In this document: positions 4,351 to 15,968 of the stretch, in pieces
Position numbering within the stretch: position 1 is the stretch's first letter
Layout of the letters: each line of letters starts with the position of its first letter
DNA from: an uncultured archaeon
Lineage (GTDB): Archaea; Asgardarchaeota; Lokiarchaeia; Sigyniarchaeales; Promethearchaeaceae
NCBI GenBank assembly: GCA_964426185.1
Contig: CAYRPF010000026.1
Span: forward strand, 1-16,211
Length of the DNA: 16,211 nt
Direction of reading: 5' to 3'
Program-made: the position numbers and the translations under genes
Notes under the pieces: generated by a model
The model's input: only the letters and a program-made list of their open reading frames with translations
The model's database searches: none
What the model was told of the DNA's origin: nothing

Positions 4351-4491
4351 AATTCTTCAGCGAATTTGTTGCTTCGTATTTATCTACAATTACATAAAAA
4401 GAATCTCTCTTATATTTTTTTATTTTGCTTTAGGATCAAAAAGCCGAAAATCTCGTAAATTTCATAAATTAGGGATTACTTTGAATTATTG

Positions 4492-6057
4492 ATGGCGAAG
4501 AAGAAAAAAAAAGCCGTGGCAAATCAAGATGATTTGTCAATGGAAGATTTAGGCATAACTCCGAAAGAACCCGTGAAGAAGACTTCTGTGAAAAAATCTA
4601 CTTCTAAGAAGACATCTGCGAAGAAATCCTCCGCAAAAAAGACCACTTCGAAAAAGACTTCACAGAAAAAAACAACTTCCAAAAAAAAATCTCCAAGGAA
4701 AACAACAAAAAAAACATCATCCTCAAAAAAATCCACCAGTAAGAAAACAACCTCAAAATCATCTAAGTTATCATCCATAAAATCCTCAGAAAATCAAGAT
4801 TTTATTCAATCTTCATGTAATGTTGGATTAGTTGGTCATGTAGATCATGGCAAAACGACCTTAGTGAAGGCATTATCAGGAACTTGGACAGAAAGATATA
4901 GCGATGAACAAAATCGGGGAATTACCATCAAATTAGGCTATGCTGAAACGGTTATTATGGAATGCCCGCAATGCAACTTAGTTCTTACAGAAGAATTAGC
5001 AAATAAAGCCCGAAAAAGTAAAAAAGATCCAAAGGGAAGATGTCCCGAATGTGGAGTCCCTTTAGAATTTCGCCGTAGAATCAGTTTTGTCGATGCTCCA
5101 GGTCATGAAATATTGATGGCCACAATGCTTTCAGGAGCATCTTTGATGGACGGTGCCATTCTTTTAATTGCAGCAAACGAGGATTGCCCTCAACCTCAAA
5201 CCAGAGAACATCTAGCAGCCCTTGAAATTGCAAAAATAGAAAATATCATCATTGTTCAAAATAAAATAGATTCGGTTAGCAAAGAACGAGTTATTGAACA
5301 TTATCACCAAATTAATGATTTTATAAAAGGAACCATTGCAGAAAATGCTCCCATCATTCCAGTATCTTCAATATTTGACGCAAATGTAGACAAAGTTATT
5401 GAAGCAATAGAAAAATATATCCCCTCACCAGATCTTGATGACGAATCAGATTTCTTATTCAATGTAGCCAGATCTTTCGATGTTAATCGACCTGGAACAC
5501 TCATTCAAGATTTAAAGGGAGGTGTTATTGGAGGAAGCATAGTCTCTGGTGTGGTTCATGTAGGTGATGATATTGAAATCAAACCTGGATTAAAAGATCC
5601 CGAAACAGGGAAATATCATCCTGTAATTACTAAAGTGGCATCTATTTATGAGGGATCTCATCCCCTCGAAATGGCTCGACCAGGTGGTTTGATTGCATTC
5701 GGAACATTACTAGATCCATCAAATACTAGAACTGACCAACTGATCGGCTCTGTTGTCGGCGCGGTAGGCACCCTTCCCGATGTTAAAATGACTGTACAAA
5801 TCGAAACTCATTTATTGGATACCGTTTTAGGAGCAGAAGAAGAAATAAAAGTTCAGCCTATTAAGAATAACGAACTTTTAATGATTGTTGTTGGAACATC
5901 ATTATCCGCGGGAGTTGTTACTAAGATTGGGAAGAAGAATGTTGTTACTTTGAAATTAAAAAGACCGCTGTGCGCTGTTGAAGGATCTATCACTGCAATA
6001 AGCCGTAGAATCAAAAATCGTTTCCGATTAATTGGATATGGATATATCGTAAATTAA
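4492..6057 (+). CDS. eif2g: Translation initiation factor 2 subunit gamma (aIF2-gamma) with a ~105-aa N-terminal Lys/Ser/Thr-rich extension
   Basis: GHVDHGKT P-loop, RGITIKLGY, Zn knuckle CPQC...CPEC, FVDAPGHEILMATMLSGA, PQPQTREH, QNKID, RSFDVNRPG, KGGVIGGS and C-terminal RLIGYG. ATG 4492 is preferred over TTG 4489. Confidence 0.97.
   Translation: MAKKKKKAVANQDDLSMEDLGITPKEPVKKTSVKKSTSKKTSAKKSSAKKTTSKKTSQKKTTSKKKSPRKTTKKTSSSKKSTSKKTTSKSSKLSSIKSSENQDFIQSSCNVGLVGHVDHGKTTLVKALSGTWTERYSDEQNRGITIKLGYAETVIMECPQCNLVLTEELANKARKSKKDPKGRCPECGVPLEFRRRISFVDAPGHEILMATMLSGASLMDGAILLIAANEDCPQPQTREHLAALEIAKIENIIIVQNKIDSVSKERVIEHYHQINDFIKGTIAENAPIIPVSSIFDANVDKVIEAIEKYIPSPDLDDESDFLFNVARSFDVNRPGTLIQDLKGGVIGGSIVSGVVHVGDDIEIKPGLKDPETGKYHPVITKVASIYEGSHPLEMARPGGLIAFGTLLDPSNTRTDQLIGSVVGAVGTLPDVKMTVQIETHLLDTVLGAEEEIKVQPIKNNELLMIVVGTSLSAGVVTKIGKKNVVTLKLKRPLCAVEGSITAISRRIKNRFRLIGYGYIVN
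4576..4755 (+). repeat. Degenerate 5-residue KK[ST][ST]x coding repeat in the aIF2-gamma N-terminus
   Basis: KKTSV-KKSTS-KKTSA-KKSSA-KKTTS-KKTSQ-KKTTS-KKKSP..., divergent at the nucleotide level. Confidence 0.9.
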
Positions 6058-11276: not shown

Positions 11277-12971
11277 GTGAATTCCAAAGAAAATACTTCT
11301 TCTGCACCCAAAGAGCGACTTGAAAAAGATCAAATTAAAGATTTAAAAGATATCAGAGATACGATCGATAAGCAGCTTCGGGAAGCCAAGCATACTTTGG
11401 AAGAAACACCGAGCAAAGAAGAAACGACTCGAAAGGAATTAGTTCTTGCATTGGATGATTTGCAGGAGAAAATTGATCACCAGAAAGAAATTTTGAATAA
11501 TTTAAATCTCCAAATTAAAACCCAACAAGAATCCTTGCAGAAATACAATGAGAAATTATCAGGAATTGAATCACTTTACAGCCAGAAAGAGGCAAATTTA
11601 GAAAAAATAAATAAAAAGATTGAAAATTTGGTTCAGCAGCGTGAAATTTTGGAAGAACTCGAAAATCATCTAAAAACTTCCATCGATTCTCTTCAAAAGA
11701 AATCGAGTGAAATGGAATCTACACTTGGGGCGGTAACCCGAGAACATTTGAAAATTATTGAAGATATGTCAAAACTTCAAAACCAGTACAATCATTTATC
11801 ATCAGATTTCTCGGATAAGAAAAACTATTTATCAACATTGGACCAGGAAATCGCAGAAAATCGCTCCACTTTAACAAAATTAAAAGAAGATATTAATGAA
11901 AAAGAGAACCAATTAGTAAAATTAAAAGAATCACTTTCCTTGCGGGAAAAATATTTGGATGATTTAGAAAAGAAAATTCTTGAACGTCAAAAAGATTTAA
12001 CCACAATTGTTGAAGAATTCAGTCATTTCGATCATGAGCTTCCAATAAAAAAACAAGAATTCCAAGAATTATCAACACAAATTGAAGAAAAGACAAATAA
12101 AATAATGGAAATGAAGGAATACATAGAAACATTGGAACGAGAACACTTGGAATATGTCGAAAAGCACGGGCAAGTTAAATCAGAATATACTGAAAAAGAA
12201 AAAGAACTAGAAGAATTAAAATCAGCTATAGATGTGCGGGAAAAATACCTACAACAAATTCAGAAAAAAATCGATGAGCGAACTGCAAAACTTATGGAAG
12301 TCACAGAAAAACAGGCAGAACTTGATGAAATAATACCACAATTAGAAAAACGAAATTCTGATCTCACGGATAGCATTAGACTCTTAGATAAACATCTGGA
12401 AGAACGTAAAGAACAACTAAATACATTAACTGAACAAGTAAACATATATTCCACAACATTTGGACGTTTGATGGAAAAAATTAAGGGAAACGAAACAATT
12501 ATTGCCCAACAGACTCAAAGAATGGAAGAATTCGATAAAGATTACATTGCGAAAAGGGAAGAAAAAGAAAATATTGAAAAAAAATATCGTATACTGATTG
12601 ATAAACTGAAAGATGCTAAAGAAGAATATGAGAAACTTGAGCAAAAGAAAGTAAATTCAGAACGTACCCTCAAAGAGGCAGAATCTAACTTAAATGCTCT
12701 GCGAAAAAAACTCGGTTCTATGGAAAAAACAATTCGTGAAGCAGAAGCTAGAATTCAAGAAAATATGGTGTTAACTAAAATACGTAAAATTGCAAAATTA
12801 TATGGAGGCGCAGTTTTTATTATTGGGTTAAGTTTTTTCATCTTTGGGCTAATAATGATGCTGATTCCGACATCTTCAACCGTAGATTTCCCCCAAAACC
12901 TCTCACTCGGATTATTTATAATTGGAGGAGTGTTACTTTTCATTAGTGGATTGCTACATATGAGTACATAG
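11277..12971 (+). CDS. Long coiled-coil protein with two C-terminal TM helices
   Basis: About 490 aa of continuous E/K/L/Q heptads with no Walker motifs, then two hydrophobic segments at the C-terminus. GTG start, with an in-frame TGA just upstream and a TTTATAA box at about 11218-11224. Confidence 0.88.
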   Translation: MNSKENTSSAPKERLEKDQIKDLKDIRDTIDKQLREAKHTLEETPSKEETTRKELVLALDDLQEKIDHQKEILNNLNLQIKTQQESLQKYNEKLSGIESLYSQKEANLEKINKKIENLVQQREILEELENHLKTSIDSLQKKSSEMESTLGAVTREHLKIIEDMSKLQNQYNHLSSDFSDKKNYLSTLDQEIAENRSTLTKLKEDINEKENQLVKLKESLSLREKYLDDLEKKILERQKDLTTIVEEFSHFDHELPIKKQEFQELSTQIEEKTNKIMEMKEYIETLEREHLEYVEKHGQVKSEYTEKEKELEELKSAIDVREKYLQQIQKKIDERTAKLMEVTEKQAELDEIIPQLEKRNSDLTDSIRLLDKHLEERKEQLNTLTEQVNIYSTTFGRLMEKIKGNETIIAQQTQRMEEFDKDYIAKREEKENIEKKYRILIDKLKDAKEEYEKLEQKKVNSERTLKEAESNLNALRKKLGSMEKTIREAEARIQENMVLTKIRKIAKLYGGAVFIIGLSFFIFGLIMMLIPTSSTVDFPQNLSLGLFIIGGVLLFISGLLHMST

Positions 12972-12982
12972 AATTAAAATTT

Positions 12983-12988
12983 AGGTGA
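12983..12988 (+). promoter_or_regulatory. Shine-Dalgarno AGGTGA of the TPR-like gene
   Basis: AGGTGA lies 5 nt upstream of in-frame ATC 12994, the same geometry as at selD. Confidence 0.65.
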
Positions 12989-12993
12989 TATAA

Positions 12994-14907
12994 ATCGAAC
13001 GCCTCTCTTACAAACCCGTTGAAAAATTTCATGAAATCTTTAAATTACTTGGATTTGAAGCCTCTAATCGATATCACAACTATTTCCGTTATAGTATTTT
13101 GACAGAACCAGAAATTTCGATTAGTTTCAGGATAAAACTGCCCATTTTTCTTCCGATTTCAAACCCAATTCCTCTTGAACTTTGTTCTTTTAACATTTCT
13201 TGCTATTTTCGCCCAAGATGGTTGGATTCAAAATTTGAGGAATTTTTGCGAAGTTTTCTAACCAAAACAATGACTTACTACAATTACTTAATTGATGAAT
13301 ACCCTCTAAATCCGTATTTTACGCTGGACAAATTCGAAAATGCTTTAAATTCTGTTTTTAATCAAATTTACGCCTCAAAGTCTGAGATTTCCTATGATGA
13401 TACTATTTCAGATTTTCAAGCATATAAACCTCTCCGGAATCATTTTTTGTTGAAGTTCGATGATTTCTTGCAAATTTCAGAACAATTATCAGAAATATAT
13501 TCATATCTCGCAGAACAAAATTGCTTTGAAATGACTACAAATTTCCCCCCTGAACTTCATTCAAATATTCCATTTAAAAAACAACACTTAGTTGGGGTTT
13601 TCACCAACACCTCACATCAAGAATATCTTCAAGAATTTCTGGTGGGAGAACCTGGGAGTATATCATTTTGTCGCGATATAAAATACAAAAATATATGGTT
13701 TCGGTTTGGAATTGAATCACATGTTCTTTTTCCCTTTTTACAATTTCAACTTCATCAATCTGATTTTCAAATCGATTGGAAAATTCTAATTCAGGATTGG
13801 ATTTCATATGGAAGGGGTTTTTCGCAAGAAATTTTATCTTTTATGAAGGAGGAAATTGAAGTAAATTCTCAATTCTTATTACCTTTTTCAGAACAGAAAT
13901 TTCTCTTGGAAAAAAGTTATTTTGAAGAAAGTTATGGCCTATTTTTTCCGATACTCGTGTTTGAAGGATTAAAATCAATACTACATGCATCTCAGATTAA
14001 TAAAAAACAGGATTTTGAACCCCAAAATTTTCGAGATCTAATCTATCTATGGCGGTTTCAAAGAGCAAAATTTATGTTTTATCAAAAAGATTGGTTAAAC
14101 GCTGAACAATATCTTCTTCCTTTACTAAATGAAATTAAATCAAACCATTATCCCAATTTTTGCATTGAAATATGTTATTCATTGGCTGAAATTTCCGAAA
14201 AATTGAAAAATTACACTCAAGGAATCGAGTATTTGCTTAAAGGTCTTGAATTCGCCAAAAATGGGACAACACCGATATTGAAAATTTTACATTTGCATTT
14301 CTATCTCATGAAATTAGCATTTTATCGAAGCAATGAAAAAGAAAAAGTAAAACACGAAGAAATCCTATTTAGCGTTCTAAATGATTTTCCAAACGGGAAA
14401 GAAAAATCAAAAATGGTTCTGCAAATAGAACTGTGGCATATTCATTGGGATATTGAAGAAGGATGGTTAGACTCTGCCAAAGAACGACTCCTTGGTATAA
14501 AAAACCCAGAAAAATATGGATCAGATTATGAAATAGAATTCAACTTCCTTTGGGGTCAATTTTACAAAAAATCAAATAATTTAGAACAAATGTGGAAAGC
14601 TTATGAAAAGAATTTTAAATTTTCACCTAGGAAAAATTACTTTTTGGGCTTGTCTTACTTAGAATACGTTGCGGAGTACTTTCTTCAGCCCAATTATTCT
14701 TCTTTTCTTTATCGAGGGTTTCAAATGCTCCAAAAAGCTGCAGAATTCTTTGATTACCATAATCCTCGCGATTTACTCAAATTGAGTGAAATCTTGGCTA
14801 AGCTCATTGAGATTTGTTTTCAATTACATAATGATGACCTCGCGATTAAATACCAAAAACAGCTAAGTGCTTGTCATTCTGTAATTTCCTTCTTTATGCA
14901 TAAATAA
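12994..14907 (+). CDS. Hypothetical protein with C-terminal TPR-like helical repeats; probable ATC start (637 aa, versus track start TTG 13099)
   Basis: TPR-like segments (ICYSLAEISEKLKNYTQGIEYLLKGLEF and FNFLWGQFYKKSNNLEQMWKAYEK). The frame is open 35 codons upstream of 13099 (IERLSYKPVEKFHEIFKLLGFEASNRYHNYFRYSI), up to TAA 12991-12993. Confidence 0.75.
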   Translation: MERLSYKPVEKFHEIFKLLGFEASNRYHNYFRYSILTEPEISISFRIKLPIFLPISNPIPLELCSFNISCYFRPRWLDSKFEEFLRSFLTKTMTYYNYLIDEYPLNPYFTLDKFENALNSVFNQIYASKSEISYDDTISDFQAYKPLRNHFLLKFDDFLQISEQLSEIYSYLAEQNCFEMTTNFPPELHSNIPFKKQHLVGVFTNTSHQEYLQEFLVGEPGSISFCRDIKYKNIWFRFGIESHVLFPFLQFQLHQSDFQIDWKILIQDWISYGRGFSQEILSFMKEEIEVNSQFLLPFSEQKFLLEKSYFEESYGLFFPILVFEGLKSILHASQINKKQDFEPQNFRDLIYLWRFQRAKFMFYQKDWLNAEQYLLPLLNEIKSNHYPNFCIEICYSLAEISEKLKNYTQGIEYLLKGLEFAKNGTTPILKILHLHFYLMKLAFYRSNEKEKVKHEEILFSVLNDFPNGKEKSKMVLQIELWHIHWDIEEGWLDSAKERLLGIKNPEKYGSDYEIEFNFLWGQFYKKSNNLEQMWKAYEKNFKFSPRKNYFLGLSYLEYVAEYFLQPNYSSFLYRGFQMLQKAAEFFDYHNPRDLLKLSEILAKLIEICFQLHNDDLAIKYQKQLSACHSVISFFMHK

Positions 14908-15314: not shown

Positions 15315-15968
15315 TTATTTAAGTCTTTTTTTCCTGATTAAGATTGAAATTAAAACTAATTGGGTTGTTCCAAAAGCTATCACCAAAAAGTTATCATATC
15401 CATTAATAAACGGGATATAATATGATCCCAAAACATGAGAACTCTCCAATTTATAACTATCGGGTCCGTTTTCAACGAGTACAATTTGAAGATAAACCAA
15501 AAGTGTTTGGATGCCGGTATAGTTGTAATTTAATCTGATATTTGCAACACTTTGATTCAAATCTGAATCGAATATATATTGTATTGATGTATTGTAAGCT
15601 GCAGCTTGCTCGTATATAGCAGGATCTATGGAAAAATTAGACAATATGAAATCTGAAGTAGGTCGTTTTTGAAAAATAAATAGATAGAAAATACCTTGAT
15701 AAAAAGCAGTTAGGTTAATAGCCCAAATTTCGTTGGGATCTAGAGATGTTACATAAAATTTCGTTGAACCTTGCTCCATTCTAAATATTTCGGAATATTG
15801 ATATTTATCCAGAGTGGAGTCTGAAGAAGAAGTACACACAATGGGCGAGATCTGAATATTCAAGAAGTTTATTGAAAATGAAAGTAAGAGTAAAACTACA
15901 ATTACACGCTGAATCGATTTTCGATACAATATCCTATTATATTGAGGAAAATATGCTTTCATATTCAT
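15315..15968 (-). CDS. Cell-surface protein with an N-terminal signal/TM segment and a Loki-CTERM/PGF-CTERM-like sorting tail
   Basis: Basic plus hydrophobic N-terminus (RKSIQRVIVVLLLLSFSINFL). The C-terminus IPFINGY-DNFLVIAFGTTQLVLISILI-RKKRLK is a motif + TM helix + basic cluster. TATAAA lies 24 nt upstream of the ATG. Confidence 0.75.
   Translation of the reverse strand: MNMKAYFPQYNRILYRKSIQRVIVVLLLLSFSINFLNIQISPIVCTSSSDSTLDKYQYSEIFRMEQGSTKFYVTSLDPNEIWAINLTAFYQGIFYLFIFQKRPTSDFILSNFSIDPAIYEQAAAYNTSIQYIFDSDLNQSVANIRLNYNYTGIQTLLVYLQIVLVENGPDSYKLESSHVLGSYYIPFINGYDNFLVIAFGTTQLVLISILIRKKRLK

Follow-up and report, generated by a model that had tools for sequence, protein, structure and literature searches.

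The stretch of DNA analysed here (the window, 16,211 nucleotides) is contig C26 of a 3.26-Mb metagenome-assembled genome (MAG) from an uncultured lokiarchaeial archaeon (155 contigs, 34% GC; GenBank assembly GCA_964426185.1, contig CAYRPF010000026.1). Its genes, as assigned with Pfam, include those for aIF2 gamma, AlaRS and a selenocysteine-type SelD. The closest relatives of its proteins carry the labels Lokiarchaeota or Promethearchaeota, as expected of an Asgard archaeon of the Loki type. Two genes of the window, one encoding a tetratricopeptide repeat (TPR)-like protein on the plus strand and the other being selD on the minus strand, carry a strong Shine-Dalgarno (SD) motif directed at an isoleucine-type codon. 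The comparisons described below make it very probable that both genes start at these near-cognate codons, namely ATC 12994 in the TPR-like gene and ATT 1362(-) in selD.

The TPR-like gene lies downstream of a same-strand gene (11277-12971) that encodes a 564-residue protein with a coiled coil and a membrane tail, and the TAG stop of the latter (12969-12971) falls 22 nt before the ATC. The SD motif AGGTGAT (12983-12989) sits between the two, ending 4 nt before the ATC (5 nt when counted from GGTGA). A micro-open reading frame, GTG-ATA-TAA (12985-12993), runs through the SD and its spacer and is judged incidental; its TAA (12991-12993) shuts the reading frame immediately ahead of the proposed start codon (12994-12996). 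Read from this ATC, the full gene comprises 637 codons plus a stop (12994-14907) and encodes N-terminal alpha/beta domains followed by a C-terminal TPR-like helical repeat. The first canonical codon in frame, TTG (13099-13101), comes 35 codons later and encodes a leucine just past a conserved YFRYSI strand. It is overlapped by the TGA (13100-13102) of an out-of-frame, 23-codon open reading frame (ORF) that begins at ATG 13031 (13031-13102). The public gene call, a 545-residue product (P0002), begins further downstream at ATG 13270-13272 and drops 92 conserved residues. No SD precedes either the TTG or this ATG.

On the minus strand, selD (310-1362, 350 codons plus a stop) encodes a selenophosphate synthetase with AIRS and AIRS_C domains and an in-frame TGA (1276-1278), read as selenocysteine (Sec), at the G-U-x-C-K position of the motif HGUSCK; these features identify a Sec-containing SelD. 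Its 8-nt SD, GGAGGTGA (1368-1375), lies 5 nt before the proposed ATT start (1360-1362), and here too a micro-ORF, GTG-AAT-TAA (1363-1371), directly abuts the isoleucine codon. On re-reading of the sequence, the positions given for both genes in a first-pass annotation of this DNA were all correct, and the abutting GTG-NNN-TAA micro-ORF is present in both genes as it described.

The 3' end of the genome's 16S rRNA reads ...GGATCACCTCCT; it was taken from a fragment located by pattern search, a 16S model search of the genome having returned no match. This tail sets the full SD complement as AGGAGGTGATCC, and both window motifs are thus true anti-SD complements, of 7 nt in the TPR-like gene and 8 nt in selD. 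That these are the sole strong SD sites at gene heads in the window, as the first-pass annotation had noticed, holds for matches of at least 6 nt. A weaker AAGGTG-N9-ATG precedes a 217-residue ORF at 15968(-), and the remaining window genes lack an SD, as do about 90% of the genes in the genome. The scarcity of SDs in the window fits their published description as rare in Lokiarchaea (PMC12993045, PMC7531240). Two copies of the 14-mer AGGTGAWWTAAATY are present in the window versus none in 200 shuffles, although this motif was derived post hoc from the same two sites; the looser GGTGA-N5-ATH (H being A, C or T) is not enriched in the window alone, with 2 found versus 1.55 expected. The string AGGTGAWWTAA (W being A or T) common to both genes is essentially a classical strong archaeal SD context. 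The leader of Pyrococcus abyssi aEF1A, GGAGGUGAUUUAAAUG (PMC6237735), has an almost identical SD and spacer, GGUGA-WWUAA-start, but continues into AUG where the window genes continue into AUC or AUU. An Rfam scan of the window returned no family.

Comparison with relatives places the N-terminus of the TPR-like protein at the ATC. From the upstream stop to the conserved N-terminal segment of the protein (YFRYS), the reading frame is free of ATG, GTG and TTG. The orthologue in a sister species (P0003, genome G001; 53% identity) opens MERLSYKP where the gene here reads IERLSYKP, an alignment that sets ATC 12994 on the ATG of G001. In a third species (Logan contig L082, 41% identity), AAGGAGG plus 9 nt leads to an ATC at the matching codon. 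In an alignment of ten homologues spanning the order, the family N-terminus falls no more than two residues from the ATC position, and the YFRYS strand, which lies upstream of the TTG, is conserved. Of 41 genomes searched, this genome (G000) included, 34 encode a homologue of this protein (33 of the 40 relatives), and the alignments of these homologues run from query residues 1-10 onward. Across codons 1-35, comparison with G001 gives 12 identical codons, 13 with synonymous differences only and 10 with amino-acid differences; at the level of sequence, this synonymous excess indicates purifying selection in the ATC frame. In an AlphaFold2 model of the protein (predicted local distance difference test (pLDDT) 86.8, predicted template modelling score (pTM) 0.82), residues 7-18 form a helix and residues 31-36 a strand, both within a confident N-terminal alpha/beta domain, and a start at TTG 13099 would remove the two elements. 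The 35 open, protein-like codons first noted ahead of the TTG are therefore confirmed, with the ATC on Met1 of ATG-started orthologues. The expectation that standard gene callers would mis-annotate such genes also proved right, given that P0002 is 92 residues short and that the L082 homologue (P0004) has been over-extended to an upstream TTG overlapping the preceding gene.

These comparisons bear directly on the possibility that the isoleucine codons are decayed ATG starts, such that truncated proteins are made from the next canonical codon (TTG 13099, perhaps coupled to the upstream ORF (uORF) at ATG 13031, or ATG 13270; in selD, the TTG at codon 20) or no protein is made at all. While the sister species does read ATG at the ATC position, gene callers do pick downstream starts such as that of P0002, and the uORF stop does overlap TTG 13099, the 35 (or 92) residues that would be lost are conserved across the order, show the synonymous excess and supply the first helix and the first strand of a domain modelled with confidence. 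The two downstream codons lack an SD, whereas the SD-led ATC recurs in the third species. The uORF fares no better as the translated, coupled unit that the first-pass annotation had offered as a rival, since its frame lacks an ATG in G001 and is interrupted there by a stop, while the 35 codons upstream of the TTG are conserved and structured. Together with the essential genes rpoA', tfe and eS28, which share the architecture (see below), these observations make decayed starts very improbable.

The 25 orthologous selD loci compared typically carry GAGGTGA or GGAGGTGA and then ATG 2-5 nt on. Three genomes of the genus replace this ATG, by ATT in the genome studied here, ATA in G001 and ATC in G002. 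All three congeners carry GGAGGTG, with the ATH codon placed 5 nt beyond the SD and exactly 28 codons ahead of Sec; in other genera a matching SD leads to ATG. In G001 and G002, selD is in frame with the GTG of its SD. In the present genome a TAA separates the two, and GTG therefore cannot be the selD start. The sole canonical candidate is then the TTG at codon 20, which lies inside an invariant RLT motif, lacks an SD and is TTA in G001; this substitution and the retention of ATH in all three congeners also speak against decayed starts. As judged from these alignments, ATH at the position defined by the SD is the parsimonious selD start in all three congeners.

With regard to the selenoprotein itself, an in-frame TGA, one per match, is found in the selD matches of 38 of the 40 relatives, and the gene encodes a selenoprotein (HGUSCK) across the whole order. 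Two or three Sec-selD copies stand in tandem in several relatives, for example on C18 of G028 and C39 of G037. The general Rfam scan of the window returned no selenocysteine insertion sequence (SECIS) family; no search aimed at SECIS elements was made.

The selD comparison also weighs on termination-reinitiation, proposed in the first-pass annotation as re-initiation after a two-codon uORF, whereby the GTG inside the SD would start the micro-ORF GTG-NNN-TAA and ribosomes would then restart at the abutting ATY (Y being C or T). The arrangement in the window is suggestive, with an in-frame micro-ORF abutting ATY in both genes and both genes lying downstream of a same-strand gene, by 22 nt and 93 nt, but the GTG of the micro-ORF belongs to the SD and is not itself preceded by one. 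Furthermore, the selD genes of G001 and G002 carry sense codons (CGA, CCT) in place of the TAA and yet retain ATA and ATC. Neither the homologues of the TPR-like gene in G001 and L082 nor the other validated ATH genes described below have the micro-ORF. Across the genome, just four GGTGA-NN-TAA sites lead into a long ORF (with ATC, ATA, ATG and AAA), plus the selD site, and a restart would in any case still require ATY to be decoded as a start. A micro-ORF confined to the two window genes and not conserved makes reinitiation unlikely, and we consider it very improbable as an account of these starts.

Nine further genes of this genome have an SD followed by ATH, with no in-frame ATG, GTG or TTG between the upstream stop and a conserved Pfam domain. 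The codon is ATT in moaA, a PAS histidine kinase gene, tfe and mutL; it is ATC in the genes for a DUF2229 activase, a DRG GTPase and a TrmB regulator and in rpoA'. In the gene for ribosomal protein eS28 (C84:5289-5565, locus L087), AAGGAGG plus 8 nt leads to ATA. This last gene has no in-frame ATG, GTG or TTG before its C-terminal GPV, and its ATA aligns with the ATG (G001, G002, G010) or TTG (G011) of orthologues. The feature common to all ATH cases is an SD, 5-7 nt and ATH.

Start codons of the other ATH genes were compared using orthologues in five relatives. The aligned start of rpoA' reads ATC, ATC, ATC, ATC and ATT, with ATG only in G008, and ATC or ATT is kept in four genera. The aligned start of tfe is ATT in four genera. 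For DRG it is ATC in the genome itself, ATT in G001 and G011, ATG in G002 and G008 and TTG in G010. For mutL it is ATT here, and the relatives of mutL, like those of eS28, read ATG or TTG. From these alignments, ATH appears to behave in this family as a start codon interchangeable with ATG and TTG. Such gene-by-gene checks are stronger than the genome-wide statistics given below, and they suggest that the two window genes and at least nine genes elsewhere most likely begin at ATC, ATT or ATA, 5-7 nt after a strong SD. A sequence or assembly artefact, in which the true bases are ATG and the consensus of a 155-contig MAG is wrong, is extremely improbable, as it would need G-to-C, G-to-T or G-to-A errors at the start-codon third positions of eleven independent sites and the aligned codons of selD, rpoA', tfe, DRG and, in L082, the TPR-like gene are likewise ATH in independently assembled sequences from other species.

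Several side observations concern these and similar genes. Serine is codon 2 (TCT, TCA, AGT or AGC) in 6 of 12 validated SD-led ATH genes versus 11% of genes counted from their first ATG and 14% of those with an SD-led ATG, a post hoc comparison on small numbers. Among database entries for lokiarchaeial TFE (P0006-P0035), the N-termini differ widely around a conserved I-P-x-E-K-K, some being truncated, with starts such as MLLD or MDFGG, and others over-extended, a scatter consistent with gene callers failing on an ATT start. At C17:25235 (+), a 4291-codon ORF opens with GGGTGAT plus 5 nt plus ATT, and its first canonical codon comes 73 codons downstream; the first 350 residues of this ORF have no Pfam match.

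For the genome as a whole, the in-frame codons that precede the first canonical start in long ORFs were scored for an SD 5-mer at aligned spacings of 4-7, the spacings at which ATG starts peak; both window genes have an aligned spacing of 5. An SD precedes 36 of 1996 in-frame ATH codons versus 21 of 3173 out-of-frame ones (odds ratio 2.8, p=1.8e-4), and 0.6% of non-ATH head codons (in-frame ATH versus these, p=4e-7). The excess of SD-led in-frame ATH amounts to about 13 genes with 6-mers and 24 with 5-mers. Among head codons behind an SD, ATT and ATC rank first, and the spacings at which they peak are those of ATG starts. In contrast, CTG and ACG are not enriched behind SDs genome-wide.

In the first SD-anchored tally, 15 of 16 cases with a distance of 5 could have been GTG starts, the GTG inside GGTGA being in frame, and a strict set free of any in-frame canonical codon was therefore made. 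Even so, ATH at the spacing-5 position is far more frequent than at flanking in-frame positions (16 of 42 versus 3 of 60). One candidate ATH start, C16:22108, was dropped because it has an upstream ATG. Operon coupling was rejected as a general requirement, a long same-strand ORF ending within 100 nt in only 20% of ATH candidates. The genome scan that the first-pass annotation had proposed, for SD plus in-frame ATH versus out-of-frame controls, thus finds an enrichment of about 2.8-fold. Its suggestion of a genome-wide initiation system stands in a modest form, covering roughly 1% of genes, or about 10-15% of SD-led genes. Separately, 5' extensions without a start codon have a heavy tail, with 113 ORFs showing at least 40 open codons before the first ATG, GTG or TTG versus some 23 expected from geometric decay. 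Most of these 113 have no SD-led ATH and may represent SD-less non-canonical starts, frameshift fragments or chance; the size of the tail would predict more non-canonical starts than the count anchored on SDs gives.

A number of observations weigh against near-cognate starts. The first 17 residues of selD are weakly conserved. The ATC of the TPR-like gene might in principle represent a mutation that arose recently and is poorly tolerated, since the G001 gene uses ATG without an SD. With internal coding ATH as the control, there is no enrichment for 5-mer SDs and a 2-fold enrichment for 6-mers (p=0.009); this weakness arises because purine-rich, SD-like words are common inside genes, and the proper controls are the head-region and out-of-frame codons. 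A further 12-15 or so spacing-5 cases are ambiguous, the SD's own GTG being in frame and a possible start, and the genome-wide enrichment statistics taken alone are modest.

Mechanistically, initiation at AUU or AUC directed by the SD, the primary suggestion of the first-pass annotation, fits the orthologue alignments, the genome-wide enrichment and the lack of conservation of the rival uORF. In such a scheme, the strong duplex formed by AGGTGAT or GGAGGTGA with the 16S 3' end would put the P site of the small subunit 5-7 nt past GGTGA, the SD-to-ATH spacing being the same as that of the SD-led ATG genes in this genome. Initiator Met-tRNA would then pair with the AU of the codon, with the third-position mismatch tolerated, and the protein would start with methionine. 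We infer the use of initiator Met-tRNA at ATH, along with the efficiency of these starts and any regulatory purpose they may have. ARAGORN, run with or without introns, returned no tRNA-Met from this incomplete MAG. An initiator-like anticodon arm, GGGCTCATAACCC, is present at C13:33380 with the anticodon CAT, which hints that the initiator anticodon is unaltered.

The closest bacterial precedents are infC, which encodes IF3 and starts at AUU or AUC in bacteria generally, and pcnB of E. coli (PMC5499595). Like these, the genes described here would use SD-led AUU or AUC initiation, their start codon is conserved gene by gene, and it is often missed by gene finders; infC and pcnB start with initiator tRNA, as we propose for the archaeal genes. 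The differences lie in the host, an archaeon with eukaryote-type aIF1, aIF1A and aIF2 and no IF3, and in scope, since the one or two bacterial genes contrast with many unrelated genes here, including rpoA', tfe and eS28. Nor does the gene for a fidelity factor itself start at ATH as infC does. The aIF1 (SUI1) gene (C16:47744-48083, locus L066; relatives L083-L086) starts at weak though canonical codons, TTG here and in G001 and G011 and GTG in G008, and at ATG only in G010, with an imperfect SD, GGAGTGA, about 10 nt upstream here and in G001. An infC-like loop acting through an ATH-started fidelity factor is therefore unsupported for this genome.

In eukaryotic near-cognate (non-AUG) initiation, stringency is set by eIF1 and eIF5. 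The tolerated third-position mismatch with initiator Met-tRNA that we propose would resemble that system, and this archaeon has the homologous factors aIF1, aIF1A and aIF2. The two systems differ in that no scanning or Kozak context is involved here, the SD duplex does the positioning, and CTG and ACG are not enriched. It is conceivable, though on balance doubtful, that lokiarchaeial ribosomes have a constitutively relaxed check of the third start-codon position behind a strong SD, such that the core genes with ATH starts across genera (rpoA', tfe, DRG and selD) form a set tracking the stringency of aIF1 and aIF2, a prokaryotic forerunner of eukaryotic near-cognate control. In a more radical variant of this idea, some ATH-started proteins would begin with isoleucine carried by a non-initiator tRNA.

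Among archaea, the tubulin gene AtubA from a lokiarchaeial MAG has been proposed to use a 'rare ATT start codon' (PMC13394414). That case comes from the same class of organisms and rests on the same argument, in that the annotated AtubA lacks its first beta strand, an upstream ATT restores the strand, and the distance to the ribosome-binding site is plausible. It concerns a single anecdotal gene treated as rare, whereas here 11 genes were checked, ATH starts are conserved across genera and the genome as a whole was tested. Ribosome profiling of Haloferax volcanii found about 30% of putative alternative initiation sites to be near-cognate (PMC7261190), which implies that archaeal ribosomes can use such codons. 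In contrast to the sole starts of conserved core genes considered here, those were alternative or extra sites, set aside by the authors as possible false positives. Our literature search found no systematic description of ATH starts in Asgard archaea, AtubA being the one anecdotal case.

The TPR-like protein belongs to a family specific to Lokiarchaeia. Residues 346-635 of the AlphaFold2 model are all-helical and are predicted to form the helical hairpin repeats that define a TPR; Foldseek matches include consensus TPR, LGN, TTC7B and OGT TPR domains (E 2e-5 to 1e-3). The N-terminal 340 residues gave no Foldseek match. Pfam assigned the protein to no family, with no TPR family at threshold, and the leads to TPR proteins from the ESM Atlas were all weak, below 0.9. 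The gene ahead of the L082 homologue likewise encodes 564 residues (L082:1-3465), and the adjacent pair is thus conserved; the 564-residue gene and the TPR-like gene likely form an operon. Elsewhere in the window, the aIF2 gamma gene (4489-6057, +) opens TTG-ATG without an SD. Its product has a lysine-rich extension at the N-terminus, about 100 residues long, with a histone-H1-like HC2 match that is weak and below cutoff.

Asgard proteins are used to reconstruct the origin of eukaryotes, and some of them are being truncated or wrongly extended by gene finders. In an archaeon with eukaryote-type initiation factors, AUU, AUC and AUA appear, as far as genome comparison can tell, to be the sole starts of essential genes, among them those for the largest RNA polymerase subunit, TFE and eS28. 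The pairing of weak starts with the strongest SDs, in a genome mostly without SDs, suggests a distinct expression class. AUU, AUC and AUA also swap with AUG and UUG over short evolutionary distances, and this swapping makes the evolution of start-codon stringency, under SD guidance as opposed to scanning, directly testable in cultured relatives.

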